Shown here: in pieces, positions 7,995 to 36,729 of the stretch
Layout: the number at the start of each line of letters is the position of its first letter
Position numbering within the stretch: the stretch's first letter is position 1
From: Eubacteriales bacterium
GTDB lineage: Bacteria > Bacillota > Clostridia > Oscillospirales > CAG-272
DNA length: 36,729 nt
Reading direction: 5' to 3'
Assembly (NCBI GenBank): GCA_045530875.1
Contig: JAZSCY010000265.1
Coordinates: 1-36,729 of the forward strand
Notes under the pieces: generated by a model
What the model saw: only the letters and a program-made list of their open reading frames with translations
Database searches by the model: none
What the model was told of the DNA's origin: nothing
Made by a program: the position numbers and the translations under genes

Positions 7995-9374
7995 ATGATA
8001 AAAACATGGCTTGTTGTAGTTGCATATCTCCTTTTTTGGCCGTTTATTCTACCTTATCATTTTGGATACAAAAAAGCAAAAAAAGAAAGCAACGCATCTG
8101 ATCATTCCGAAGAAATAAGATCGTATAAAGAAAAAATCCGGGAGCTGGAAGCAAAAAATAAAGCCCTCAAATCCTCCGCTCCTGCAGTATCTAAAAAAGA
8201 AGTTACCGATACGGATCTGGAAAAGAAAATTGCCGCACTGCAAAAAAAACTGCATAATATGCAGGAACTATACAAAGCAGTGGAATATGCGCTTCAGAAC
8301 AGCGAGTTTCTTTCTCCGGAATTATCCAAACAATATGAAGAACTCTGTCCTACGGTAATCCTTCATCTGCATTCCATGGATTCCAAAAGCCTGCAGCAGG
8401 AATTCCGTTTGAATGATAAACAGATACAAGAAACCGTTGCACAATTTGAATCCAGATACAGCACAAAAACAATAGCTGCTATCTACAAATTGATGGCTAT
8501 AGCAATGCGAGCGGAATTGCAGAATATCCTGTATGCCCTGAAGTACGAAAAACTGGACAATGCAATCTCATCTGTCCGTGAGATGACGGCCAAGTATTAC
8601 GCCATCGCCATTGAAGGGAACCAGACCATCGCCGGGACACTCAAAGAGTACATATCCAAGATAGAATATCTATTTATAAACGCAGTAAAGATCGAATACA
8701 ACTACTACGTGAAGCGGGAACAGGCCAAAGCTGAACAGGCAGCTCTCCGGGAACAGATGCGCATCGAAGCCGCTGAGCGGAAAAAGCTGGAAGAAGAACA
8801 GAAGAAAATCGAAAAGGAAGAATCCAAGTATAAGGCCGAAATTGATAAGATCAGAGAATCACTCCAGACTGCCGCAGATGCCGAACGTAAAAAGATGGAA
8901 GCACGGATCGCAGAACTGCAAAACCAGCTTGCCGAAGTTGCTGTCAAGAAGGAAGAGATCATCCATCTGCAGAACGGAAAAGCCGGAACCGTGTACATCA
9001 TCAGCAATCTGGGTGCTTTCGGCGAAAACGTATTCAAGATCGGCATGACCCGCCGTCAGGAGCCTCAGGATCGTGTGGACGAGCTGGGCGACGCCAGTGT
9101 GCCGTTCCGATTTGACGTACACAGCTTTATTTTCTCCGAAGACGCTGTAGGTTTGGAAACTGAACTGCATCACATACTGAATGAAAAGCGTGTAAACAAG
9201 GTGAATCTCCGGAAGGAGTTCTTCAATGTCACCATAGAGGAGTTGCAGGAACTTGTGTATAAACTGGATCCCACTGCATCCTTCACCACCACTATGGCAG
9301 CAGAAGAATACCGACAGTCTATGTCCGGTCAGATCTATACAAGTGATTTTGTGAGCATAACAGAAGATGAATAA
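7995..9374 (+). CDS. Membrane-anchored coiled-coil protein with DUF4041-like middle region and a C-terminal T5orf172/GIY-YIG-like nuclease domain; candidate anti-phage defence or superinfection exclusion
   Basis: The N-terminal TM is WLVVVAYLLFWPFILPY. Long Lys/Glu coiled coils follow. The C-terminus GTVYIISNLGAFGENVFKIGMTRRQEPQDRVDELGDASVPFRFDVHSFIFSEDAVGLETELHHIL...RKEFFNV is the T5orf172 signature. The gene is visibly more AT-rich than the phage backbone. Confidence 0.75.
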   Translation: MIKTWLVVVAYLLFWPFILPYHFGYKKAKKESNASDHSEEIRSYKEKIRELEAKNKALKSSAPAVSKKEVTDTDLEKKIAALQKKLHNMQELYKAVEYALQNSEFLSPELSKQYEELCPTVILHLHSMDSKSLQQEFRLNDKQIQETVAQFESRYSTKTIAAIYKLMAIAMRAELQNILYALKYEKLDNAISSVREMTAKYYAIAIEGNQTIAGTLKEYISKIEYLFINAVKIEYNYYVKREQAKAEQAALREQMRIEAAERKKLEEEQKKIEKEESKYKAEIDKIRESLQTAADAERKKMEARIAELQNQLAEVAVKKEEIIHLQNGKAGTVYIISNLGAFGENVFKIGMTRRQEPQDRVDELGDASVPFRFDVHSFIFSEDAVGLETELHHILNEKRVNKVNLRKEFFNVTIEELQELVYKLDPTASFTTTMAAEEYRQSMSGQIYTSDFVSITEDE

Positions 9375-9379
9375 CAAAC

Positions 9380-9407
9380 AAGGCAGGATCCCGCAAGACC
9401 CTGCCTT
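9380..9407 (+). terminator. Hairpin after 7995-9374 (weak terminator or attenuator before the integrase gene)
   Basis: AAGGCAGG (9380-9387) pairs with CCTGCCTT (9400-9407), followed by a short T tract. Confidence 0.35.
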
Positions 9408-9426
9408 TCCTTATAGGAGGTGCCCA

Positions 9427-10473
9427 ATGAGAAACCCAAACGGATGGGGATCCGTCCACAAACTCCCCGGAAACAGGCGCCGGCCATGGCGTGCCCGAAT
9501 CACCTCCGGATGGACTGCGGACGAAAGCGGAAAGGTCCGGCAGCAGTATAAAACTATCGGATGGTATGCCACCCGCGAGGAAGCGATGACCGCCCTTGCG
9601 GAATACAATGCCAACCCTTATGAGCTGGACGACGCAATCACCTTTGCAGAGCTGTACGACAAGTGGTCGGGCGAGAAATTCCCCACCATCAGCAAATCAA
9701 ACGTCAGCGGATACAAAGCCAGCTATAAGGTCTGCGGCGCGCTGTACAACATGAAATTTGCCGAAATCCGCCGTTCGCACCTGCAGGGTGTCATCGACAG
9801 CTGCGGAAAAGAATACCCAACCATGCGGAAGATAAAGGTATTCTTCCGCCAGATCTTCGACTACGCCATCCAGAATGATTTGTGCACCACCAACTACGGC
9901 CAGTACGTCAACATCGCCCAGTACAAACCAAAGCCCGGAGAAAAAGAAGAAAAACACAAGCCTTTCTCCGACGCAGAAATCGAAACGCTGTGGGATAATA
10001 TCGCCCGGAATGAATACATCGGTATCATCCTCATCATGATATACAGCGGCATCCGGATCGGAGAGCTGTGCCAGATCCAAAAGGAGCACGTGCATCTGGA
10101 TGAACGGTATTTTGATATTCCCAGATTTAAAACCGACGCCGGTGCCCGGAAGGTCCCGATCGCAGAGAAGGTGGTTCCGCTGTGGACGCACTGGATGAGC
10201 CTGCCGGGAGAATATTTTCTGCAGAAGCCAACCGGAGGCGGCATGGAAACGAGCACATACCGCGATACCTATTTCACGGATATACTGGAGCAGATCGAAA
10301 TGGATCATCTCCCCCACGATACCCGGCACACGTGCATCACCCTGATGCAGAGAGCAGAGGTGCCCAAAACAATAATCCGCCGCATCGTAGGCCACGCCGA
10401 CCGAGACGTGACGGATCAGGTGTATACCCATTATGAGATAAATCAGCTCATAGATGCAATCAATAAAATATAG
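9427..10473 (+). CDS. int: Tyrosine integrase (phage integrase family)
   Basis: The N-terminal SAM-like part is followed by a catalytic region with IRIGEL (Arg), HDTRHTCITLM (H-x-x-R) and GHADRDVTDQVYTHY (His...Tyr). Start set at ATG 9427, after AGGAGG. Confidence 0.9.
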   Translation: MRNPNGWGSVHKLPGNRRRPWRARITSGWTADESGKVRQQYKTIGWYATREEAMTALAEYNANPYELDDAITFAELYDKWSGEKFPTISKSNVSGYKASYKVCGALYNMKFAEIRRSHLQGVIDSCGKEYPTMRKIKVFFRQIFDYAIQNDLCTTNYGQYVNIAQYKPKPGEKEEKHKPFSDAEIETLWDNIARNEYIGIILIMIYSGIRIGELCQIQKEHVHLDERYFDIPRFKTDAGARKVPIAEKVVPLWTHWMSLPGEYFLQKPTGGGMETSTYRDTYFTDILEQIEMDHLPHDTRHTCITLMQRAEVPKTIIRRIVGHADRDVTDQVYTHYEINQLIDAINKI

Positions 10474-10577: not shown

Positions 10578-10615
10578 AAAAACCACCCCATATGAGGTGG
10601 TTTTGTTCTTTTCTT
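10578..10615 (+). terminator. Strong intrinsic terminator after the integrase gene
   Basis: AAAACCACC-ccatatga-GGTGGTTTT followed by GTTCTTTTCTT. Confidence 0.7.
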
Positions 10616-10738: not shown

Positions 10739-11053
10739 CTACATCTCCCGCAGCCTGCGAAGTACCGCATCATACATCCTCGGAAGCAGTACCGCCGTAG
10801 CGTCCATCATCTCATCCATCAGCATCCACACCGCTGCCGGATCCTTTGCGAGCGCCAGCGTCAGAAACTCACTGTCTGCCGGTATGTCCGGCGGTGCGGC
10901 GTTGGATACTGCGGATATATCCGATGCAGAGCCACCCGGCAGGAGTGCACGAAGCTGCAGGAGGGTTGCTGTCTTGTGGGCCGTCTCAAAATTCTTCGGC
11001 GCCCCTTCCAGTTCCTCCAGCGCCTCGTCAATATCCTGCCGGGTTATCATCAT
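10739..11053 (-). CDS. Cargo operon gene 7: hypothetical protein (104 aa)
   Basis: ATGATG at 11053-11048 overlaps the upstream TGA. AAGGGGG RBS. No family recognised. Confidence 0.6.
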   Translation of the reverse strand: MMITRQDIDEALEELEGAPKNFETAHKTATLLQLRALLPGGSASDISAVSNAAPPDIPADSEFLTLALAKDPAAVWMLMDEMMDATAVLLPRMYDAVLRRLREM

Positions 11054-11460
11054 GCGGCCCCCTTGATCCGGTGTACGATGTCCTCGATCATGTCCCACTC
11101 GTCGTCATTAAACAGATTCCGCATCTGCTCAAGTTCTTTTACGATGCGCATCTTTTCTCCGTCGTCCCGGGAATACCGGCCACGGCTGTCTCTGCGCTGG
11201 CTGTATCCGCCATCGTTGTAGGAACGTCCATCATTGTAGGATCTGCCGCCCTGGTTGTAGTGAGGCATCATGCGGCCGTCACGGTCCACAGCTTGGCTGT
11301 AGCCTCCTTCTTCCTCCAGCATACAGATTTTGTCGATGTTCTTGATGGTGTCGGTCAGCATATGGATGGTGGTTACATCACCCATAGACAAATCGTCCTT
11401 TTTGTCAAATTCCTTCAGCTCCTTTTGGAGCTTTTCTTTCATTCGCTTAAGATGTTCCAT
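11050..11460 (-). CDS. Cargo operon gene 6: helical protein with a central Gly/Tyr/Ser/Arg/Asp low-complexity segment (136 aa)
   Basis: AAGGAGGA RBS. The central segment GGYSQAVDRDGRMMPHYNQGGRSYNDGRSYNDGGYSQRRDSRGRYSRDDG is flanked by charged helical ends. Confidence 0.65.
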   Translation of the reverse strand: MEHLKRMKEKLQKELKEFDKKDDLSMGDVTTIHMLTDTIKNIDKICMLEEEGGYSQAVDRDGRMMPHYNQGGRSYNDGRSYNDGGYSQRRDSRGRYSRDDGEKMRIVKELEQMRNLFNDDEWDMIEDIVHRIKGAA

Positions 11461-11470
11461 AGGTTCCTCC

Positions 11471-11881
11471 TTAAACTGTGAGAATAGCGTTCTGCATCTC
11501 GATGGGCGTGCCGGAATCGTTGCGAATGCCGATGGTCACCGAATCACCGAAGCACACGTCAACCAGATCGTTGATCGACACGTGCCAGAACTCCCCGGCC
11601 GCCGCAGGTGTCACAATGGCGGAGGACGCCGGCAGCGGAACACCGTCCAGCAGAAGGGAGATGGTGATCGGCCCAACCGTACCGCCGTCCGGAATGGCAA
11701 CATTGGCACCGAACATGATGTGATACTGGGTTTTGCGATTCCCGCAGACACCGGATAGGCGAATCACGCCCGTCTCTGTCTGGCTCACCGCACCGCAAAT
11801 ACAGCCGTACCGTGTGGGGTTCAGCAGTGCATTCCCGCCGTCCGCAATGGTCTGCAGGGCAGGATATGTGTATTTATCCAT
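11471..11881 (-). CDS. Cargo operon gene 5: small all-beta-looking protein (136 aa), possibly a jelly-roll/C1q-TNF-like fold
   Basis: AGGAGG RBS. It has alternating hydrophobic beta-strand patterns (YHIMFGANVAI, ITISLLLDG, FWHVSINDLVDV, VTIGIRN, MQNAILTV) and N-terminal cysteines (YGCICGAV, GVCGN). Confidence 0.65.
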   Translation of the reverse strand: MDKYTYPALQTIADGGNALLNPTRYGCICGAVSQTETGVIRLSGVCGNRKTQYHIMFGANVAIPDGGTVGPITISLLLDGVPLPASSAIVTPAAAGEFWHVSINDLVDVCFGDSVTIGIRNDSGTPIEMQNAILTV

Positions 11882-11955
11882 AGATTACCTCCTGTAATAA
11901 TGTGCGGCGAGACTGTTGCCCCGCCGCTTTTTGTTACCCCGTGGGGCTGATTGGT

Positions 11956-12852
11956 TTATGCAGATGCTCTGCAGTTGCAGTTGTTGCCCCAACCGCCGCC
12001 CCAGCCGCCGAACTGAGCCTGACCGCAGCAGTTAGTGGGAAAGCTTACCGTGGTGGGCGGCTGCACGATATAGGCAGCCTGCGGGCACTCAGCACCCAGA
12101 CGCCTCAGGAGAATGGCCTGAGATGCTTCGATGGTGGCCGCGATATACGCATTCTGCTTGAGGTTCTGGTTCTCGTTTTCGACGGCGCGGTACTTTTCGG
12201 CGAGCTGGTTGTACTCGATCTGGCCGAGCTTTTCCAGGATGGCACGAGTACCAGCGTTCTGGGAATCTACGATGTCCCGGGTGTTGTCGGATGCCTGGTG
12301 TCTGGTCTCACATGCCTGTACAGCCATATCATACCGGACACCGTCGATTGCCCTGCCGGTGCTGCAGCAACAGTCGCCGATCTGACGGGCGATTTCGTTG
12401 AAGCCCTGCTGGTTCTGATACCCTTGGGAGCAGATAGCATTTTCGATGCCGTTTACGCCGGTCAAAACAGCGGTGTTGACACCATTGAAGCCCTGGCAGA
12501 GCGTCTGCTGTACCCCGGCCTGTCCCAGCTTCAGATCGTTGATCCCGCCGAGAATGGCAGAATTGTTGAATCCGGCTGCCAGATCCGCCTGAGTAGCACA
12601 GCCACAGCCGCAGTCACGGCCGCCCCATCCGCCGAAACCGTTCATCATCATCCAGGGCCACATCATGCCCATACCTCCCATCATGCCGCCGAAGCCTCCC
12701 ATGCCCATGCCGCCCCAGCCGAACATGGAAGCCAGCAAGAACACAAGGATCCATTCGCCGAAGTTTCCACCCCAGCTTCCGCCGTTGCAGTTGCCGTTCC
12801 CGGTTACAGCGGCGATGTCAGCAGGGGTCATTTCGCTTGCAGTAAGAGACAT
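11956..12852 (-). CDS. Cargo operon gene 4: membrane-associated Gly/Met/Trp-rich, Cys-rich protein with a coiled-coil segment (298 aa)
   Basis: AGGAGGAA RBS. Hydrophobic WILVFLLASMFGW is followed by GGMGMGGFGGMMGGMGMMWPWMMMNGFGGWGG. It has about 15 Cys, including CGCGC, CCC, CC and CNC clusters. A heptad-like segment is ILEKLGQIEYNQLAEKYRAVENENQNLKQN. Confidence 0.7.
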   Translation of the reverse strand: MSLTASEMTPADIAAVTGNGNCNGGSWGGNFGEWILVFLLASMFGWGGMGMGGFGGMMGGMGMMWPWMMMNGFGGWGGRDCGCGCATQADLAAGFNNSAILGGINDLKLGQAGVQQTLCQGFNGVNTAVLTGVNGIENAICSQGYQNQQGFNEIARQIGDCCCSTGRAIDGVRYDMAVQACETRHQASDNTRDIVDSQNAGTRAILEKLGQIEYNQLAEKYRAVENENQNLKQNAYIAATIEASQAILLRRLGAECPQAAYIVQPPTTVSFPTNCCGQAQFGGWGGGWGNNCNCRASA

Positions 12853-12914
12853 ATAATATTCCTCCTATGGTTAGTTAAAAGTTTTATATCACAAACCGCG
12901 GCCGCAGTGTTGTG

Positions 12915-13142
12915 TCAGAAGTGGAACATATTCCGCAGGCCGGAAAACTGCGCCTCAAAACGCTTCGCCATTGCCTGCGCCATGTTGAGATGCTCCTGCG
13001 AAATCTGGCCGGAGCCAAGCATTTCCTGCAGAATCTGGTTGGGGTCTTTTCCCTGGTTTTTTTGCATAAACTGGATAAATCCATTCTGCATACCGCTGTT
13101 CACTTCCGCAGCGGTATAATTGGTTTTAGTGGAATTAGGCAT
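12915..13142 (-). CDS. Cargo operon gene 3: small Gln/Met-rich helical protein (75 aa)
   Basis: GGAGG RBS. 8-nt overlap with the upstream gene. Confidence 0.6.
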   Translation of the reverse strand: MPNSTKTNYTAAEVNSGMQNGFIQFMQKNQGKDPNQILQEMLGSGQISQEHLNMAQAMAKRFEAQFSGLRNMFHF

Positions 13143-13575
13143 TATTTACAACCTCCGTTTCTGCCGGAACTGCCGGTGCGGGAGTCTGTGCCGGCTGTGT
13201 AGGTGCCAGAAGTGCATTTATTGCCTGCAAAAACTCCTGCCTGGTCACATATTCCGGCTTCTGGTTCTGGTCCCGGACGGTGAAATCAAGAATCATCATC
13301 GGGAGCGGTCTGCCGGACACATCTGTCCGCTTGAAATAAATGGTATCCCTGCCGGAATCCCAGAGCACAGCCGAACTGTTCGCCGCAACAAGGAATGATC
13401 TGGCGGCTTCCTCTCCTTCAACCCATATACGGTCATCCCGCATGGGCGCCGCAGGCATCTGCCCGTATCCCTGCGCCGGCTGCTGACCAAAGTTCTGCGG
13501 AGCCTGCGCATACTGTTGCGGGTACCCGAATCCTCCGTTCGGCTGATATCCGCCGTAGTAGTTGTTCCAAGACAT
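13135..13575 (-). CDS. Cargo operon gene 2: protein with a Gln/Gly/Tyr/Pro-rich N-terminus, a globular core and a Pro/Ala/Thr/Gln tail (146 aa)
   Basis: AGGAGG RBS. The N-terminus is MSWNNYYGGYQPNGGFGYPQQYAQAPQNFGQQPAQGYGQMP. Confidence 0.7.
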   Translation of the reverse strand: MSWNNYYGGYQPNGGFGYPQQYAQAPQNFGQQPAQGYGQMPAAPMRDDRIWVEGEEAARSFLVAANSSAVLWDSGRDTIYFKRTDVSGRPLPMMILDFTVRDQNQKPEYVTRQEFLQAINALLAPTQPAQTPAPAVPAETEVVNNA

Positions 13576-13578
13576 AAC

Positions 13579-13962
13579 TCATTCCTCCTGTTTCGTCCAG
13601 TAGTAAATCACAACCGTGTCGCCGCTGTCCCACGTATCGAGCCAGGACCCATTTTCCACACAAACAACATGCTGGTGGGGACAAAGGACATACACCCCGG
13701 TGGGATGGTCCCGGCAGAAATCCCGCACCGTGTACCCGTCCCAGTCCTCGGGCACAATGTACCGGTGCCAGCCGTGCCGCCGGAGCACAGCCCCCCAGAC
13801 ATCGTCCGCGTCTGTTTCGTCGCACCGAATGGCCGCTTCCGCCACTTTGGCCGCAAAGGCTGTGTGCCAGTCATCGCCGCCGATGGCTTTGGCCAGCGCA
13901 CGGGTGGAGCAGTCCCCGACCCGCTTACCTCTGGGATTGGGGTTGTAGTATTTCCAGCCCAC
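13579..13962 (-). CDS. Cargo operon gene 1: putative papain-fold Cys-His protein (peptidase/amidase-like), about 127 aa
   Basis: The VGDCSTRALAKA motif (a candidate nucleophile Cys at the start of a helix) pairs with a later VLCPHQHVVCVENG...DTWD. Start chosen at GTG 13962, 8 nt after GGAGG. The ORF-track start at 13971 is itself part of that RBS. Confidence 0.5.
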   Translation of the reverse strand: MGWKYYNPNPRGKRVGDCSTRALAKAIGGDDWHTAFAAKVAEAAIRCDETDADDVWGAVLRRHGWHRYIVPEDWDGYTVRDFCRDHPTGVYVLCPHQHVVCVENGSWLDTWDSGDTVVIYYWTKQEE

Positions 13963-13988
13963 GGGAATCACCTCCGATTTCTGCCAAT

Positions 13989-14017
13989 ATTGTATAAAAA
14001 AAAGAGCCCTGCCTCAA
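13989..14017 (-). promoter_or_regulatory. Candidate promoter of the cargo operon: TTGAGG (14017-14012), 17-nt spacer, TACAAT (13994-13989)
   Basis: Read on the minus strand. The -35 lies in the loop and 3' arm of the upstream terminator hairpin. Confidence 0.3.
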
Positions 14018-14031
14018 TGAAGAGACAGGGC
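13994..14031 (-). terminator. Intrinsic terminator ending the late/lysis operon
   Basis: On the minus strand it reads GCCCTG-tctcttcattgagg-CAGGGC followed by TC and eight T. Confidence 0.65.
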
Positions 14032-14102: not shown

Positions 14103-14309
14103 TTATTTGGAGGCCGAAACAACACCAAAAAGTGTCTTTTGTGCGTTGTATACAATGTACTTGATGCCACGTACAGACATATCAAATTCTTCGGCCAAAG
14201 GTTCAAAACAAACACCGTCCACCAAACGTCGGATCAGTATCTTCCGATCCCGCTCCCGGTGGATTCGCTCGTTTATAAGATGTGTGATTTCAGAGTTGGT
14301 ATACTCCAT
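14103..14309 (-). CDS. Small HTH protein resembling sigma-70 region 4 / LuxR-type HTH (68 aa)
   Basis: ATG 14309 follows GGGAGAA. ...ILIRRLVDGVCFEPLAEEFDMSVRGIKYIVYNAQKTL is a region-4-like HTH. Confidence 0.55.
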   Translation of the reverse strand: MEYTNSEITHLINERIHRERDRKILIRRLVDGVCFEPLAEEFDMSVRGIKYIVYNAQKTLFGVVSASK

Positions 14310-14357
14310 ACAGTTCTCCCAAAGGAAGGACGTGACCGGATACACATCCGCTTCCGG

Positions 14358-14586: not shown

Positions 14587-14811
14587 TCAACCTCCGAACA
14601 GTGATTTCAGGATATCTGCAATCAGGGTTCCGCAAACGCCAGTCAAAAGCCAGTTTGTCACCTTTAGGCGCTGGTCGATGATGGCAAAATGGGTGTTCCC
14701 CTCATTCAGGCGCTTTGTGTAAGCGTCTGTTTGTTCATCGCAGCTTTTACGGGTCACAAAGATAAGCTCCATGTGCTCCCTGATCTGCTGCATATCTTCA
14801 TTACTGATCAT
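14587..14811 (-). CDS. Small protein with a C-terminal membrane segment (74 aa)
   Basis: GAGGAGGA RBS. The C-terminus WLLTGVCGTLIADILKSLFGG is hydrophobic. Confidence 0.6.
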   Translation of the reverse strand: MISNEDMQQIREHMELIFVTRKSCDEQTDAYTKRLNEGNTHFAIIDQRLKVTNWLLTGVCGTLIADILKSLFGG

Positions 14812-15094
14812 TTCCGTCCTCCTCGGTCGGCTTCATCATATCCGCCTCCAGTTCCGCCGTGATCCTCTCCACCATCTGGCGTGCCACATCGACTGCGGAC
14901 TCGCCGAAAATATAGGCGATCAGCACCCCGATGCCGCTGCGGATGATCCCCACCATTTCCGGCGTGAGACCCTCCCCGAACAGCACCGTAAGCGCCATGA
15001 CGACGCCGGCCGCAATGGCGCACCACAGCTTACGGCTCGTCAATTTTTCCGCCCAGTTTGTTTTCGTCTTCGCATTCACAGCATTTTTGTCCAT
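14801..15094 (-). CDS. Putative holin (97 aa, 2 TM)
   Basis: ATG 15094 follows AAGGAG. KLTSRKLWCAIAAGVVMALTVLFG and IGVLIAYIFGESAV are TM segments resembling Firmicutes phage holins. Confidence 0.6.
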   Translation of the reverse strand: MDKNAVNAKTKTNWAEKLTSRKLWCAIAAGVVMALTVLFGEGLTPEMVGIIRSGIGVLIAYIFGESAVDVARQMVERITAELEADMMKPTEEDGNDQ

Positions 15095-15308
15095 GATCCT
15101 GCATCTCCTTTTCGTGTTCGTGATGTTGTTTGGTTTCAAATACACGGATAGCCCCGGCGGCCACAGATTCCACACCCACAGCCGCAGAGATACCCATGAC
15201 AAGGGAGGACGGTTCGTTTCCGGTGATGATCCAGACGACCAGACAGACCGCGAAGAACGCGCCCATATAAAGATAGATCGACAGCAAAAGCCGCTTCATC
15301 CATCTCAT
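15030..15308 (-). CDS. Putative holin/antiholin-like membrane protein (92 aa, 2 TM)
   Basis: ATG 15308 forms an ATGA overlap with the endolysin stop. LLLSIYLYMGAFFAVCLVVWII and LVMGISAAVGVESVAAGAI are hydrophobic. The His/Cys/Glu-rich tail overlaps the next gene by 65 nt. Confidence 0.55.
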   Translation of the reverse strand: MRWMKRLLLSIYLYMGAFFAVCLVVWIITGNEPSSLVMGISAAVGVESVAAGAIRVFETKQHHEHEKEMQDHGQKCCECEDENKLGGKIDEP

Positions 15309-15850
15309 CGCATTGCCTCCCAGAGTTTCCGCCACAGATCCGGCGCATATTTGTACTTGTCCAGATACGCCTTCGTCTGCGCTTCCAGCCCGGCTTTTCG
15401 GCAGACCTTCTCCGCATCCGTCAGCACCTCATGGGAGCCGATCCGGTTGGGGATGCCCAGCGCCATGGTGGGATCAACGGCCCCCCCGTCCGGCCTCCGT
15501 ACCTCAAAATGCAGGTGAGAGCCGGTGGATTTGCCTGTTTTACCCTCAATCCCGATGGTGTCACCGATTTTCACACGATCGCCGGCGCGAACAGAACGCG
15601 CTGCGAGATGGCAGTAGTACGACAATGTACCGTCGTCCGACTGAACGCAGACATAATTGCCCCATTCCCACGTCCGGTTATTGGTGTCCGTTATGATCCG
15701 CGAGAATAAAACACGACCCGGCAGCACCGCCACAACGGTTTTGTCCGACCCCACGAGGTCAATGCCTTTGTGATATTCGGTTATCCCCTTCATCGTGCGC
15801 GTGCCGAAAGCCGAAGTCACCCGGACGGTACCGGTTTTATACGGCAGCAT
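15305..15850 (-). CDS. M23-family peptidoglycan endopeptidase (endolysin)
   Basis: HKGIDL ... GNYVCVQSDDGTLSYYCHL ... GKTGKSTGSHLHFEV are the M23 (LytM) zinc-binding motifs. ATG 15850 follows GGGAGGTGA. Confidence 0.85.
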   Translation of the reverse strand: MLPYKTGTVRVTSAFGTRTMKGITEYHKGIDLVGSDKTVVAVLPGRVLFSRIITDTNNRTWEWGNYVCVQSDDGTLSYYCHLAARSVRAGDRVKIGDTIGIEGKTGKSTGSHLHFEVRRPDGGAVDPTMALGIPNRIGSHEVLTDAEKVCRKAGLEAQTKAYLDKYKYAPDLWRKLWEAMR

Positions 15851-16097
15851 TCCGATCACCTCCCGCCGGCACAAAACAGCCGCAGCCGTCATCATACCTA
15901 TATCCGTCCGGTGTCCCGGGCCGGATAAACCGCTCATCTCCGTCTACGGTTTCATCGTATCCCCATCCGGGATGCACAAAATCCGGTGCCTCCGCAAAAA
16001 CACAGTACGGATATTCCCGCTCTGCCGCTGCCGCTGAGGCAAACCGCTCCGACACATCTTCATGGCAGAACCTGCCCTTAATCAAAAACACCTTCAC
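15837..16097 (-). CDS. Small protein between fibre and endolysin (86 aa)
   Basis: GTG 16097 forms a GTGA overlap with the fibre stop and follows GGGAGGTGG. Confidence 0.5.
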   Translation of the reverse strand: MKVFLIKGRFCHEDVSERFASAAAAEREYPYCVFAEAPDFVHPGWGYDETVDGDERFIRPGTPDGYRYDDGCGCFVPAGGDRNAAV

Positions 16098-17422
16098 GCG
16101 ACCACCTCCCAGGTATAATACTGCAGGATGATCAGACCATGCCCGCCGGATGAAGCGTTGGATCCGCCGCATCCGCCGGCAGCGAGACCGCCGTCACGAC
16201 CAGTAGACCCACCAGCACCGCCGGGACCATAGCCGCCGCCTCCGCCTGCGTTGGATTCGTCCGCATCCCCGCCGGGACCGCCATAGCCGCCGCCTCCTCC
16301 TCCGTTGGATTCGGCACCGTTTCCTCCGTCTCCACCGAGACCGCCGCCGCCTCCGCCCCCGTTGCCGTTGCCGGAACCGATAGAACGTCCGCCGTCTCCG
16401 CCGTCGCCGCCATAGCCGCCGCCTCCGCCTCCGCCGGAACCAGTATTATAACCGGCACCCGGCGAACCGTGGCCCACAAAATCATTGTCCGTGGCAGTTG
16501 TGTCAACACCAGGGCCACCGGAACCGGAACCGGTCGAAGAAACCTTTCCGTTTCCCGCCACCCCGGCACCGCCGCCCGCAGCAGATGAGGCAACGCCGCC
16601 GGAGAAAGCGCCGGCCTTCCCGGAGCCGCCGGATTTTTCTGTTCCGCCTCCGCCTCCGCCTCCATTGGGGCCGCCATTGCCGCCAACAGCCTTGTTTCCG
16701 CCTCCGCCTCCGCCGCCGTCGTCCCCGTTGCCGCCTTTTTTGTAGCTGCAGCCCCCTCCACCGGCTGCACCATCTCCGCCTGCAGTGTTCCCGGCAGATC
16801 CGCCGGATGCCGTCGCCACATCGCCGAATGACGTTGTCCCGCCGTCCATGCCCGGTTTTCCGCCGCAACCAACCACGCAGTCGTAGTGGTCCCTGTCCAG
16901 ATTTGCAACAGTCACAGTCCGCCTGCCGGAACCGCCGCCGCCACCGGAACCGCCGCCGGCACCACCGCCGAACAGCATCAGACGGACATCGCCATGCAGA
17001 CCGGCAGGCTTAAACCATCGGATAGATTCGGTTATGATTTCAGTTTTGAGTACCTCTTTGATGCCGGACATACGCATCCATGTTCTGGTGCTGCCGGATA
17101 CTGCCGTGCAATGATACATGGCACCGCCGGCAATGTATACATCACCGACTTTTGCCTCCAGAGACGATGACGGCGCGCCGGTCCCCACAAAAACCTGACA
17201 AAATCCATTTTTGATGGCCCTGAACGCTCCGTTCGGTGTTTTGTCAGATTCAGCAGTCAGTCCGAACAGTGCCGCCGTGGCATCGGAGAAAAGAGTTGCT
17301 TTGTTGAGTGGAGTACCAACCTGCGTAGGTTCGTCCGCCCACTCCAATTTATAGACATTGGTCTGCCCGGTAACAGGCGTCAGCCTGACCCTGCCCGGGT
17401 ATTTTGATGCTCTGTCAAGCAT
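16094..17422 (-). CDS. Glycine-rich tail fibre / receptor-binding protein (442 aa)
   Basis: The N-terminus TQVGTPLNKATLFSD and the motif GDVYIAGGAMYHCTAVSGSTRTWMRM are typical of Firmicutes phage fibres. About 300 aa of GG(x)GG-type glycine-rich domain follow. ATG 17422 follows AGGTG. Confidence 0.75.
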   Translation of the reverse strand: MLDRASKYPGRVRLTPVTGQTNVYKLEWADEPTQVGTPLNKATLFSDATAALFGLTAESDKTPNGAFRAIKNGFCQVFVGTGAPSSSLEAKVGDVYIAGGAMYHCTAVSGSTRTWMRMSGIKEVLKTEIITESIRWFKPAGLHGDVRLMLFGGGAGGGSGGGGGSGRRTVTVANLDRDHYDCVVGCGGKPGMDGGTTSFGDVATASGGSAGNTAGGDGAAGGGGCSYKKGGNGDDGGGGGGGNKAVGGNGGPNGGGGGGGTEKSGGSGKAGAFSGGVASSAAGGGAGVAGNGKVSSTGSGSGGPGVDTTATDNDFVGHGSPGAGYNTGSGGGGGGGYGGDGGDGGRSIGSGNGNGGGGGGGLGGDGGNGAESNGGGGGGYGGPGGDADESNAGGGGGYGPGGAGGSTGRDGGLAAGGCGGSNASSGGHGLIILQYYTWEVVA

Positions 17423-17831
17423 ACGCCACACCTGCCTCAATCTGGCCGCTGTCAAACCATGTATCCGGTATGGATTCCGCCACCGGTCCCAGCATAGACA
17501 GCATAGCCTCAATTTGATTTGCCATAATAAACGTAAATCGATCCATTGTACCGGGAAGCGGTGGAACCGTGTCAGCAAACCGCAGCGAGTCCCGGAGAGC
17601 CGTCAAAACCCGGATATACTGCGCCATGTCAGACTGCCGGGGTATGTCGTCCGCTGTCCAGTCCTCCCGCAGTGCATCCGGCACGATATAGCCGTAGTCA
17701 GACAGCATCGACCGTATGACATTCGCCGCAGCTCCGACCCGGTTCAGGTCAGAAGCACCATAGGACCCGCGAGCGGATCCGGAGTCCACATCAACCTGTG
17801 TTCTGTCCGTGATCAGATCCGAAAAGCTCAC
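17415..17831 (-). CDS. Tail fibre-associated protein (138 aa)
   Basis: GTG 17831 forms a GTGA overlap and follows GGGAGGTG. ...SYGASDLNRVGAAANVIRSMLSDYGY...EDWTADDIP recalls the N-terminal parts of prophage fibre proteins. Confidence 0.6.
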   Translation of the reverse strand: MSFSDLITDRTQVDVDSGSARGSYGASDLNRVGAAANVIRSMLSDYGYIVPDALREDWTADDIPRQSDMAQYIRVLTALRDSLRFADTVPPLPGTMDRFTFIMANQIEAMLSMLGPVAESIPDTWFDSGQIEAGVAYA

Positions 17832-33136: not shown

Positions 33137-34336
33137 TCAGTTCAGCTTAACAGCCTTCCCGCCCGTGAAATTCTCCCACCGACGGATGATTACATCACAG
33201 TATTTCGGATCAAGCTCCATCATATAACAGGTGCGGTCTAATTGTTCGCAAGCAATCAATGTTGTACCTGTGCCACCAAACAAATCAAGCACACAATCGT
33301 TTTTGTTTGAAAAATTGTTGATATAATTAGAAACAAATTCAACTGAAAATGTAGCTGCGTGAATGTTTGAAAATTCGTTTTTTCTTTGCGGTGAACAATC
33401 AAAAACATTTGAAACCGTTCCCCTAAAATTATTTGTGCCAACAGCGCGAGAATTGTTTTCTTGACTAAAAAATAAAACAAATTCAAATTGCGAGTTCATC
33501 ACTCTTTCGGCCATCGCTGGTGCCGTTGTTGTTTTTCTCCAAATTGCAATGTCGCAAAGTTGTTCTTTGAATTTATGCAAATAATCGCAAAACACCAATT
33601 TGTTTCCCGCCAACATTTGAATATTTATTATCGCATATTTTGAAAACAAAATTCCGTTTTCTGTTGACTTAAATAACAGTTCATCATAATTGTCTAAATC
33701 ATCGTTGTTTGACAGATATTTACTATCCGTTGTATGCGTGTTACCCGACAATTTTTCACTCGCCCCTGCGTTATAAGGCGGAGAAGTAAATTCTATATCC
33801 GCTTTCTTGCCATCCATCAGCATTTCCACGGTTGCCTTATCGGTGCTGTCACCACACATCAGCTTATGTCTGCCCAACCGCCAAATATCGCCCGACTTAG
33901 CAATCGGCTCTGCATCTTCATCCGCCTCTGGTGTCTCATCTTCCACAACCTCGCCGGGAGACGCCAAAAAACTGACCGATTTTGGGAGATCAAACTCAAA
34001 CCCCGACAGATCCAGCTCCGGCAGCTCCTCCGCCAGAAGCCCCAGATCCCACGGTGATTCGTTCGCTTTGTTGTCCTCGATCCGCAGCGCATTCACCTGC
34101 TCCGGCGTCAGATCCTCCACCGATACGCACGGCACCTCCGCCATACCCAGCTTTTTTGCCGCCAAAACCCGGCAGTGCCCGATCACAATAACCCCGTCCC
34201 GGTCAACCACCACCGGCTGGACAAAGCCGTACTGCCGGATAGACTCTGCCACATTGGCAATCTGCCGCCGGTCGTGCTTCTTGGCGTTCTTCTCATAAGG
34301 GATAAGCTCCCCGACGGGTCTGTTCACAACGTCCAT
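33137..34336 (-). CDS. ParB-like nuclease domain fused to a DNA methyltransferase (N6-A/N4-C type, SPPY motif)
   Basis: The N-terminus IPYEKNAKKHDRRQIANVAESIRQYGFVQPVVVD...IGHCRVLAAKKLG is a ParB/Srx fold. The MTase part has LMCGDS, TSPPYN and a C-terminal FGGTGTT SAM-binding loop. Confidence 0.85.
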   Translation of the reverse strand: MDVVNRPVGELIPYEKNAKKHDRRQIANVAESIRQYGFVQPVVVDRDGVIVIGHCRVLAAKKLGMAEVPCVSVEDLTPEQVNALRIEDNKANESPWDLGLLAEELPELDLSGFEFDLPKSVSFLASPGEVVEDETPEADEDAEPIAKSGDIWRLGRHKLMCGDSTDKATVEMLMDGKKADIEFTSPPYNAGASEKLSGNTHTTDSKYLSNNDDLDNYDELLFKSTENGILFSKYAIINIQMLAGNKLVFCDYLHKFKEQLCDIAIWRKTTTAPAMAERVMNSQFEFVLFFSQENNSRAVGTNNFRGTVSNVFDCSPQRKNEFSNIHAATFSVEFVSNYINNFSNKNDCVLDLFGGTGTTLIACEQLDRTCYMMELDPKYCDVIIRRWENFTGGKAVKLN

Positions 34337-36131: not shown

Positions 36132-36729
36132 TTATTCCAAAAGCCTCATGATTACGCGTCCGCCGTAGCTTCCGCCGCAGATTTTCACAAATTCTTCCAC
36201 GGTATACGTGTCGTTTTCCAGGTCAATACCGTGATCCGCTGCAAAGGTTTTTCGACCCATCTCACAGCTCCCGGTAAGTCGGTGGTGCCAGGCGAAGAAA
36301 TCAGCCGCCGGATACTTCACGCCCCGTTCATGGCATCTCCAGAACGATGCAATCCGCTCATCCTCCGGCATATCGTCAAACAGCTTATCCTCTGCCGCCT
36401 GTACAGCCTCTGCCAGTGTCTTCCCGTGAGCAAACACATCCCCGCGCTTGACGATGTAGCACGACTGCAGCGTCAGATCCTTGTTGAGTATATAGCCTTT
36501 TGCCGTGTTGCCAAACACAGCCCGTATAATAGTTTGTATCTCATCAACCATATATACAGTATCCCCGCAAAAGCTGGTGATTCCCCAGCCGGAACCCCAG
36601 CCGTAACCCCAGCCGTCACCCCAGCCGTAACCCGAGCCGTAACCCGAGCCGGAACCCGGGCCGGAACCCGAGCCGGGACCCGAGCCGGAACCCGGGCCGG
36701 AACCCCGGCCGGCACCCGGGCCGTCACCC
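36132..36729 (-). CDS. 3' part of the (Gly-X)n repeat protein: repeat tail plus a 139-aa globular C-terminal domain (5'-partial at the window end)
   Basis: The frame of the ORF-track ORF 36132-36551 stays open upstream to the window end. It reads ...GDGPGAGRGSGPGSGSGPGSGSGPGSGSGYGSGYGWGDGWGYGWGSGWGITSFCGDTVY-MVDEIQ... There is no good RBS before ATG 36551. Confidence 0.55.
   Translation of the reverse strand, partial: GDGPGAGRGSGPGSGSGPGSGSGPGSGSGYGSGYGWGDGWGYGWGSGWGITSFCGDTVYMVDEIQTIIRAVFGNTAKGYILNKDLTLQSCYIVKRGDVFAHGKTLAEAVQAAEDKLFDDMPEDERIASFWRCHERGVKYPAADFFAWHHRLTGSCEMGRKTFAADHGIDLENDTYTVEEFVKICGGSYGGRVIMRLLE
36582..36729. repeat. Third, diverged partial copy of the 156-nt higher-order repeat seen at 1-312
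   Basis: 36611-36729 aligns with 1-119 apart from a few a-to-g or t-to-g changes (cccgag to cccggg, ccggaac to ccgggac, ccgtcac to ccggcac). Confidence 0.9.

Follow-up and report, generated by a model that had tools for sequence, protein, structure and literature searches.

What is the role of a phage protein that has thousands of homologues, a wealth of cysteines and no named relative? This question is raised by positions 11956–12852 of a 36,729-nucleotide (nt) stretch of DNA from a Eubacteriales bacterium (contig JAZSCY010000265.1, the whole of which is referred to here as the window), where an original prediction had described a 298-residue protein with a Gly/Met/Trp block, clustered cysteines and a coiled coil. 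We find that the gene is genuine, that it is conserved in a very large phage family, and that it travels with neighbouring genes as a mobile cassette. Our tentative reading, for which we would claim something short of an even chance, is that the protein forms a membrane-tethered, thiol-stapled stalk of hendecad repeats, probably a trimer, with a Pro-rich tail that docks the TNF-like trimer encoded next to it. In this reading it would serve as the hub of an accessory cassette of the phage whose products assemble in the cytoplasm.

With respect to the reality of the gene, the open reading frame (ORF) lies on the minus strand and encodes 298 amino acids (aa) from an ATG start. Relative to a homologue of 79% identity, nucleotide differences number 54/34/129 at codon positions 1/2/3, and the G+C content of third codon positions (GC3) is 0.71 in this frame versus 0.57 in the plus-strand shadow frame. 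The 54/34/129 pattern together with the GC3 value indicates that the frame is under purifying selection. The predicted protein therefore stands, with its strand now fixed as minus, on the basis of a strong ribosome-binding site, codon-position bias and thousands of homologues. The competing plus-strand ORF at 11902–13119 (405 aa), which fully covers the gene and exceeds it in length, was rejected as a real gene and is a shadow according to the codon-position statistics. Gene callers that favour the longest ORF choose this shadow over the gene itself. The gene and the parts of its product are arranged as follows.

11956–12852, minus strand: the gene, 298 aa, a member of PHROG 16490
12861–12866, minus strand: Shine–Dalgarno sequence AGGAGG, 8 nt before the ATG
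12754–12852, minus strand: acidic N-terminal tail, residues 1–33, with no Lys/Arg and three Asp/Glu; conserved MSLTxSEMTPADIAAV motif followed by a Gly/Asn segment
12715–12753, minus strand: short Trp-flanked hydrophobic helix, residues 34–46, WILVFLLASMFGW, a putative membrane tether (modelled by AlphaFold2, AF2, as a helix at residues 31–43)
12619–12714, minus strand: Gly/aromatic low-complexity linker, residues 47–78, Met-substituted only in the clade of this protein
12598–12612, minus strand: CGCGC cluster at the base of the stalk, residues 81–85; C85, of CATQAD, is conserved in the close subfamily
12097–12597, minus strand: N/Q-rich alpha-helical stalk, residues 86–252, of which residues 86–200 are hendecad repeats
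12364–12372, minus strand: CCC triplet, residues 161–163, invariant (128–129 of 129 diverse members)
12022–12087, minus strand: conserved Pro-rich tail CPxPAYxVxPPxxVxFPxNCCG, residues 256–277, a proposed docking peptide
11959–12021, minus strand: Gly/Trp stretch and terminal C-x-C cluster, residues 278–298, with C292 and C294 near-invariant

In terms of family membership, the protein matches PHROG 16490, a family of unknown function, with E 6.8e-50 (residues 6–294 on positions 8–281 of a 286-position profile). A collection of 5.8 billion proteins returned 6,854 significant matches, none of them named, and a library built at 50% identity holds 2,022 clusters of the family. Its close relatives are encoded by prophages of gut Clostridia (Acutalibacteraceae, Oscillospiraceae, Lachnospiraceae and Christensenellales, including the cultured Anaerotruncus colihominis DSM 17241), and further homologues occur in Butyrivibrio virus Ceridwen, in the Clostridium perfringens phages CPD1 and XP41-N3, and in lemur and rodent gut viruses. 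Beyond these, 173 records of Enterobacteria phages contain a homologue, spanning Drexlerviridae, Seuratvirus, the T5-like Demerecviridae and a Yersinia myophage, and viruses assigned to Methanomassiliicoccales carry proteins with the same PHROG 16490 label. The homologues in crAss-like phages have been annotated as "outer capsid protein/viral fiber" or "spike protein/glycoprotein". Several of these genes (L007:3740-4723, from cr109_1; P0271, P0272 and P0357) contain in-frame stops and use a recoded genetic code.

Searches for a described family were negative. Pfam contributed no family for the protein at E <= 0.1, Spore_coat_CotZ-type (ExsY/CotY/CotZ) models included, nor was there a match in NCBIfam, in PADLOC or, by sequence-profile search, in the PDB; extending the PADLOC search to five neighbouring genes again gave none. 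The original prediction had named kinship with a known holin, spanin or tail-associated family as the outcome that would speak against it, and across Pfam, PHROG, NCBIfam and PADLOC no such kinship was found. Specifically, no holin family in Pfam, PHROG or NCBIfam matches this protein, which is 298 aa long and has a single hydrophobic core of 13 residues. No lipobox of the sort expected of a two-component spanin occurs in any partner cluster, and the hosts of the close relatives are Clostridia. Neither PHROG nor Pfam offers a tail or tail-fibre family, and the PDB holds no sequence relative. A literature search returned nothing on PHROG 16490, on DUF7841 or on any pairing, in phages, of a BclA-like protein with a coiled coil rich in Cys, and the paper on the BASEL collection labels a homologous gene "putative sugar-binding protein" without discussing it. 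The architecture of the family and its cassette thus appear to be undescribed, the family being catalogued solely as a PHROG of unknown function.

The composition of the protein agrees closely with what had been predicted. The approximately 15 cysteines are exactly 15 (residues 22, 81, 83, 85, 119, 141, 161–163, 181, 256, 275, 276, 292 and 294), among them the CGCGC, CCC and NCC...NCNC motifs. Residues 47–78 are made of G, M, W, F, P and N only (G15, M10, W3, F2, P1, N1), so that this block holds 10 of the 14 Met residues of the whole protein. The Gly/Asn/Cys/Trp termini (GNGNCNGG and GGWGNNCNC), the G(F/I)N motifs and the hydrophobic helix were also found.

Which of these features matter to the family was judged from conservation counts in an alignment of 129 diverse members. 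Across close and remote members the order of parts is fixed: N-terminal tail, hydrophobic core, linker, N/Q-rich helix, CCC, helix, Pro-rich tail and C-x-C end. This architecture is preserved in members from Butyrivibrio, C. perfringens, Escherichia coli, crAss-like phages and archaeal viruses. The N-terminal tail spans about 31 residues and is net negative in 96% of 362 members; the hydrophobic core has 11–16 residues (median 12) and is usually flanked by Trp; and the linker of about 30 residues is almost uncharged (35% Gly, 11% Asn, 8% Phe). Besides the CCC triplet, which is kept in coliphage, crAss-like and archaeal-virus homologues as well, the invariant or near-invariant cysteines are C256 (128/128), C292 (124/124) and C294 (116/116). 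The CPxPAYxVxPP tail was present in nearly all of the 34 lineages surveyed below. By contrast with this constancy, the Met richness and Cys22 are peculiar to the small clade of our protein: at the Met positions within residues 49–64, Met is found in at most 9 of the 129 members, where the family pattern is G-F/Y-G-G, and remote members show GFGG or GYGG in place of the Met motifs. The N-terminus was also considered as a double-glycine bacteriocin leader, an idea that was discarded given the lack of conservation at the G-G position and the nature of the protein, a fibre of 298 aa.

The coiled coil that had been proposed for the middle of the protein stood in part. The region is indeed N/Q-rich and helical with a hydrophobic periodicity; it is not heptad-like, since the strongest period of the family-averaged hydropathy over residues 86–200 is 3.65 residues (11/3). 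Over residues 86–160 the power is 48 at a period of 3.67 versus 10 at 3.5, and the values for residues 86–160 and 86–252 taken together are 48–52 at 3.67 and 7–10 at 3.5. The stalk repeats are accordingly hendecads and not those of a classical heptad coiled coil. Cysteines recur along the stalk at about one per 22 residues, and C119, C141 and C163 fall at one and the same hendecad position of the hydrophobic stripe. The second major subfamily has Asn at positions 141 and 181 and instead carries Cys at 170 and 210. From this arrangement we infer that the chains run parallel in a bundle whose core is layered with Cys (or Asn). A model in which the swapped Cys pairs form disulfides across an antiparallel hairpin was rejected because the pairs imply different symmetry centres, at 161 and 190. 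The AF2 model of the protein, built from the 129-sequence alignment, has a predicted local distance difference test score (pLDDT) of 51.5 and a predicted template-modelling score (pTM) of 0.19; its main feature is a single helix over residues 139–251, itself of low confidence. A fold search with this model gave no match, a result that is uninformative at such low confidence, and we make no claim as to the fold. Models of this sort, dominated by a long helix, are typically obtained for proteins whose folding depends on oligomerisation or on a surface.

The setting of the gene provides the second line of evidence. In the window the surrounding genes and signals are the following.

14103–14345, minus strand: 80-aa gene with weak similarity to sigma-70 region 4 (E 0.087), upstream of the cassette
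13989–14031, minus strand: strong terminator-like hairpin (14031–14006, 10-bp stem with T-run) overlapping a promoter-like site (14017–13989), directly upstream of the cassette
13579–13971, minus strand: partner at position -3, 130 aa, PHROG 3754, with invariant Cys21/His101/Asp112; the first gene of the cassette
13135–13575, minus strand: partner at -2, 146 aa, PHROG 21718, with a Q/G/Y/P-rich N-terminus and a small beta domain
12915–13142, minus strand: partner at -1, 75 aa, helical and Q/M-rich, cluster 5
11471–11881, minus strand: partner at +1, 136 aa, PHROG 20016, modelled as a stand-alone TNF/C1q-fold jelly roll
11050–11460, minus strand: partner at +2, 136 aa, helical at both ends with low complexity (Y/S/R/D/G) between, cluster 4 (DUF7841 is found in the alternative cluster 55)
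10739–11098, minus strand: partner at +3, about 104–119 aa, helical, cluster 42; its true start is probably an internal MM near 11053
10579–10604, no strand assigned: bidirectional terminator-like hairpin that closes the cassette before the integrase gene

The terminator- and promoter-like signals are consensus matches and not proof. Neighbourhoods were surveyed in 87 loci, grouped at 80% identity into 34 lineages, with ORFs ranked by the conservation of their proteins across loci. All six neighbours in the window have collinear homologues in one other locus (L005), and five of the six do in each of three more, namely a prophage from NCBI (L004), Butyrivibrio virus Ceridwen and Dulem virus 35. 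The cassette follows a holin and a CHAP endolysin in the NCBI prophage, follows the endolysin in Ceridwen, and lies between the minor- and major-capsid genes in Dulem virus 35. Across lineages, a protein of about 140 aa occupies the +1 position in approximately 31 of 34 (cluster 1 in 18, cluster 30 in 13), one of about 150 aa with a Q/P/G/Y-rich N-terminus the -2 position in 28 of 34, one of 136–230 aa with a Y/R/S/D/G-rich centre the +2 position in approximately 27 of 34, and a helical protein of about 75 aa the -1 position in 22 of 34. Clusters 2 and 13, both found at -2, are one family (hhalign probability 98.7%), and the DUF7841-bearing type of +2 partner precedes the crAss-like homologues or, in some gene calls, is fused to them. 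An integrase gene lies on the opposite strand at +4 or +5 in 9 of the 34 lineages. To see whether the cassette is optional, loci were also retrieved through the endolysin; three were returned, and the gene was present in both informative ones, a sample of three loci only.

The Enterobacteria phages carry a shorter version of four genes, encoding the homologue and proteins of about 115 aa (His-rich), 170 aa (beta-rich) and 85 aa. It adjoins the 3' side of the lateral tail-fibre gene in two unrelated groups of siphophages, Drexlerviridae and Seuratvirus, and stands alone on its own strand in the Yersinia myophage. It is present in the coliphages DanielBernoulli (BASEL; bas08_0030) and CAjan (gp21). 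The Seuratvirus version ends with a 67-aa Cys-rich protein (MCGNTNRCCLGSP...CNC...; L089:6767-6970, CAjan gp25). Because the neighbours travel collinearly, occupy varied positions and are bracketed by terminator- and promoter-like signals, we describe the unit as a self-contained mobile cassette of 4–7 genes that is tied to no single virion type, lysis system or host envelope.

The partners form two co-varying sets, one containing the Cys21/His101/Asp112 protein and the other an HExxH protein together with a sigma-70-region-4 protein. The order Cys-His-Asp is typical of papain-like, NlpC/P60 and transglutaminase-like enzymes, and the -3 partner, for which Pfam and the PDB gave no sequence match, is by its motif a possible thiol enzyme. 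In the second set (type B), the +3 protein of cluster 25 (for example L053:11938-12279) carries the HExxH motif SHELVHC and gives weak matches to DUF2268/SprT-like Zn-proteases. Judging from these motifs, there seems to be one putative hydrolase per cassette type. Type-B cassettes are headed by a clearer equivalent of the 80-aa gene (cluster 6, for example L069:8947-9153; PHROG "RNA polymerase sigma factor", 6.6e-7), and the sigma-region-4-like HTH gene upstream of the cassette may be a dedicated regulator. Low-complexity regions recur within the operon, as GGYSQ...GRSYNDGRSYNDGGYSQRRDSRGRYSRDDG in the product of 11050–11460 and as an N-terminal FUS-like Q/G/Y/P-rich segment in that of 13135–13575. 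Counting the Gly/Phe linker of the 298-aa protein, one operon holds three low-complexity proteins.

Among the partners, the one at +1 is the most informative with regard to structure. Its model is all-beta and confident (pLDDT 88.4, pTM 0.83), and in a Foldseek search of the PDB its 17 best matches are all exosporium or endospore-appendage proteins of Bacillus, with template-modelling (TM) scores of 0.55–0.70; the best reach E 1.2e-6 and probability 1.00. These include the BclA C-terminal domain (CTD; TM 0.65), ExsF in the F-ENA anchoring complex (0.68–0.70) and BxpB (0.67), as well as ExsFA and F-BclA, and generic TNF and C1q domains rank after them. In the viral library BFVD, the fold occurs in stand-alone phage proteins of about 135 aa (TM 0.82–0.86) and also at the tips of collagen-like, tail-fibre and whisker proteins. 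On the basis of the model, the +1 partner can with confidence be assigned a ten-strand jelly roll of the TNF/C1q superfamily, a relationship for which its sequence gave no match in Pfam (BclA_C/C1q), among PDB sequences or in NCBIfam. ExsF trimers hold three Pro-rich exosporium-leader peptides in the clefts between their subunits (PMC12357932). The Pro-rich tail of the 298-aa protein could dock in the manner of these leader peptides, a parallel that is one of analogy and not of membership. As a side observation, the alternative +1 protein of cluster 30 (for example L008:1220-1624) is about 134 aa long with 6% Cys and invariant C3, C7, C10 and C42, and has no match in Pfam, PHROGs, NCBIfam or the PDB.

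In terms of cellular location, the 298-aa protein is the sole hydrophobic, anchor-bearing component of the cassette. In 13 partner clusters no N-terminus resembles a signal peptide, and neither a lipobox nor a transmembrane-like segment occurs. Judged by its hydrophobic segment, the protein is likely to insert into the membrane. If the cassette proteins cooperate, the lack of export signals in the partners would place the stalk and its cysteines in the cytoplasm, or at least have them assembled there. A cytoplasmic stalk fits the acidic, Lys/Arg-poor N-terminal tail, and it fits a CCC triplet that has to work in aerobes and anaerobes, in diderms and monoderms, and in archaea. It also fits stapling by metal–thiolate bonds at least as well as stapling by disulfides.

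Taken together, these observations suggest a scheme in which the 298-aa protein would be the stalk or anchor subunit of the mobile cassette. The N-terminal helix would fix it to the cytoplasmic membrane, leaving the short acidic tail on the outer side and the stalk within the cell, and the hendecad repeats would bring identical chains together in parallel, most likely as trimers in keeping with the trimeric fold of its partner. Stacked Cys layers (the CGCGC base, the mid-stalk cysteines with CCC, and the C-terminal cluster) may staple the bundle through metal–thiolate bonds or disulfides. Three Pro-rich tails could then dock onto a TNF-like trimer, as leader peptides do in ExsF clefts, while the low-complexity partners and the putative Cys-His-Asp enzyme might mature or glue the assembly. 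The outcome that we favour would be a fibrous structure attached to the membrane, assembled in the cytoplasm and made late in infection or from the prophage.

Several points weigh against this scheme. The poor AF2 model means that the oligomeric state, the Cys layers and the docking had to be inferred. The swapping of Cys pairs between subfamilies is weak evidence of a structural constraint, as it could reflect just two clades. The exosporium-leader model TIGR03720 matched none of three C-terminal and two N-terminal segments of the protein at E <= 10. Among the +1 partners, the TNF-like fold was seen for cluster 1 only (18 of 34 lineages), and profile–profile comparison of cluster 1 with cluster 30 and with the beta-rich coliphage p2 and crAss p1 proteins revealed no link, the solid links between alternative partners being those of cluster 2 with 13 and of cluster 55 with DUF7841 alone. 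We therefore claim no universal TNF-like partner. The hydrophobic core is also just 11–16 residues long and borderline in a 19-residue hydropathy window (median 1.68). In addition, the literature search yielded no report of expression, localisation or phenotype for the family.

The principle of a fibrous stalk bearing a TNF-fold trimer is already known from viral fibres and from BclA/ExsF, and the comparison with each is instructive. The exosporium nap of the Bacillus cereus group, built from BclA and ExsFA (BxpB), and the F-ENA anchor (PDB 1WCK, 8D02, 7R5I and 9H3D) likewise place a stand-alone TNF/C1q protein, here the +1 partner (TM 0.65–0.70), beside a gene for a fibrous partner with a Pro-rich peptide. 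They share assembly without export signals and Cys-rich components nearby, and ExsFA/BxpB is, like the +1 partner, a stand-alone domain of similar architecture. Our stalk, however, would be an alpha-helical hendecad coiled coil and not collagen-like GXX; its Pro-rich peptide lies at the C-terminus instead of the N-terminus and is not recognised by the leader model; the sequences show no similarity; and the genes are phage-borne, including in phages of non-sporulating hosts. Viral attachment fibres (reovirus sigma-1, PRD1 P5, the adenovirus fibre, and the collagen-like/C1q fibres of phages) resemble the proposed assembly in joining an elongated oligomeric stalk to a TNF/C1q-type knob, whereas here stalk and knob are separate polypeptides with no link to a particular virion type, and the stalk carries a hydrophobic tether at its N-terminus as well as a Gly/aromatic linker and layers of Cys. 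Stalks with hendecad or other non-heptad repeats and polar core layers are found in trimeric autotransporter adhesins and tetrabrachion. The 11-residue periodicity is shared with these, and the Asn/Cys alternation at 141 and 181 is reminiscent of their polar layers; on the other hand, there is no sequence relationship and no beta-barrel anchor, and the Cys layers and CCC belong to our protein and not to those stalks. The i-spanin Rz of phage lambda also combines an N-terminal membrane anchor with long helices and conserved cysteines, and the gene often lies near the lysis cassette, but the 298-aa protein has no o-spanin or lipoprotein partner and no family match, and its clostridial hosts are monoderm. 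The coliphages that carry the family have spanins of their own. The Cys-rich lattice proteins ExsY/CotY/CotZ and CdeC are comparable in their high Cys content in C-x-C and CC motifs, their likely covalent or metal stapling and their cytoplasmic assembly; they differ in that no Pfam or NCBIfam model links them to our protein, which is fibrous and helical and not a compact lattice subunit.

Other explanations have to be weighed against the same evidence. One is that the stalk and the separate TNF-like +1 knob decorate the virion, with the hydrophobic, Gly-rich N-terminus buried in the particle or engaging the host membrane. The gene does occupy late or structural parts of its genomes: it comes straight after the gene for the lateral tail fibre in Drexlerviridae and Seuratvirus, archaeal viruses encode tail proteins close by, head genes flank it in Dulem virus 35, and in the window it trails the genes for tail and lysis. 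Many phage fibres are capped by TNF/C1q knobs, virion parts need no export signal, and annotators have labelled the crAss-like homologues as fibre or spike. A docking site common to the unrelated virion modules of sipho-, myo-, crAss-like podo- and archaeal viruses is nevertheless improbable; a fully hydrophobic segment of the WIIILLLF type is atypical of a soluble fibre; no sequence relative exists among solved virion structures; and the cassette is bracketed by its own terminator- and promoter-like signals, so that we regard a virion fibre as rather unlikely. The same appearance of an independent transcription unit would suit a prophage moron that acts at the host membrane, whether in superinfection exclusion, as an undescribed abortive-infection or defence effector, or in lysis timing, with the long cytoplasmic coiled coil as sensor or scaffold. 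The interval between lysis cassette and integrase is typical of conversion or defence genes, and nine lineages have an opposite-strand integrase at +4 or +5; a homologue of the PD-Lambda-1 defence protein is encoded just past the integrase; the 298-aa protein alone in its cassette is membrane-tethered; and in crAss-like phages the gene comes after holin and LysB-like genes. Even so, no PADLOC, holin, spanin or exclusion family matches, strictly virulent coliphages and crAss-like phages carry the family equally, its placement in coliphages and Dulem virus 35 bears no relation to lysis genes, and seven co-evolving, structural-looking proteins are unlike known single-gene exclusion factors. A moron is, in our estimation, distinctly unlikely.

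The original prediction had pointed to two further functions, a cross-linked spore or exosporium layer and copper binding. The first survives in indirect form, in that the adjacent gene encodes a protein that folds like BclA-CTD and ExsFA/BxpB. A Cys-cross-linked, exosporium- or coat-like component supplied by a prophage to its sporulating host would also agree with the gut Clostridia that harbour the close relatives, with the coat-like low complexity of the partners (Q/G/Y/P-rich and R/S/Y/D-rich), which lack export signals as do coat proteins made in the mother cell, and with the possible Cys-His-Asp enzyme. For the 298-aa protein itself the link finds no support: there is no match to exosporium-leader, BclA_C, CotZ/ExsY, GerQ or other spore-coat models, homologues are carried by phages of non-sporulating E. 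coli, Salmonella, Yersinia and Bacteroides-type hosts and by archaeal viruses, and the TNF fold is generic among phage fibres. We consider a spore-surface role very unlikely. The idea that the Met-rich, Gly-spaced block binds Cu(I) as in CopA, PcoA and CueO, within a metal-binding or storage protein, could draw on the Met count, on 15 cysteines in C-x-C, CC and CCC motifs that resemble metallothionein, and on the His-rich small protein of the coliphage cassettes. The copper reading loses its basis because the Met block is clade-specific, its positions holding F/Y in the family; Pfam and NCBIfam contain no copper-resistance or multicopper-oxidase family (CopA/PcoA/CueO type) that matches; and one Cys per 22 residues on a fibrous stalk suits structural stapling over storage. 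We give it hardly any credence, and a tempting but wrong copper-binding annotation is thereby removed.

Returning to the membrane-tethered stalk, its docking onto a TNF trimer would, if true, extend an attachment principle of the Bacillus spore surface to viruses of many hosts. A broader proposal, which we put forward as a long shot, is that this widespread cassette of bacterial and archaeal viruses builds a new intracellular layer, exosporium- or condensate-like, from membrane-tethered, Cys/metal-stapled hendecad fibres, BclA/ExsF-like trimers, low-complexity glue (FG-like Gly/Phe, Q/G/Y/P-rich and R/S/Y/D-rich), a thiol or zinc enzyme and a sigma-region-4 regulator. The function of such a phage-made layer (for example as a platform for virion assembly, in protection or in release) would be new to phage biology. 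With approximately 2,000 clusters at 50% identity and an invariant CCC, the family is among the larger blocks of phage dark matter with no described function, and it is common to gut Clostridia prophages, crAss-like phages, coliphages (Drexlerviridae, Seuratvirus and T5-like) and viruses of methanogenic archaea. It is also experimentally tractable, being the hub of a portable cassette whose commonest partner has the BclA/ExsF fold, and isolated coliphages amenable to genetics carry the four-gene version.

The window as a whole is a complete temperate siphovirus-type genome of gut Clostridia. In descending coordinates on the minus strand it encodes a ParB-methyltransferase, the large terminase, the portal, a MuF-like head protein, the major head protein, the tape measure, tail proteins, a Gly-rich fibre-like protein, an M23 endolysin, holin-like proteins (separate genes at 14801–15335) and the cassette block, beyond which lies a plus-strand integrase gene (9367–10473). 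A 459-aa protein encoded at 7995–9374 on the plus strand matches the PD-Lambda-1 anti-phage defence model (E 5e-83), the sole PADLOC match reported; its gene overlaps the start of the integrase gene and is therefore a prophage-borne defence gene at the integration end. The contig ends consist of 12-nt tandem arrays, AGCCGTAACCCG repeated 25.8 times at 1–310 and CCCGAGCCGGAA repeated 11.8 times at 36583–36723, which on the minus strand encode a repeat protein, (G-S/D/Y-G)n ...GYGSGYGWGDGW, whose C-terminal domain is globular. The genome is probably circular, the contig ends marking a break within the repeat gene, which gives the phage its second low-complexity protein of the Gly/aromatic kind. 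The 494-aa protein of 16094–17578 (minus strand) has long GGGxG runs, a local G+C content of 66%, no PHROG match and several long shadow ORFs, and is presumably a Gly-rich tail fibre. A 22-nt tandem repeat at 2302–2385 (GTCCATTTTCTGGACATCCCAT, 3.8 copies) has an internal palindrome-like core and possibly represents iterons or operator sites of the early region. Finally, the protein of 33137–34336 (minus strand) fuses a ParB-like nuclease/partition domain to a DNA methyltransferase (PHROG 498, E 7e-97).

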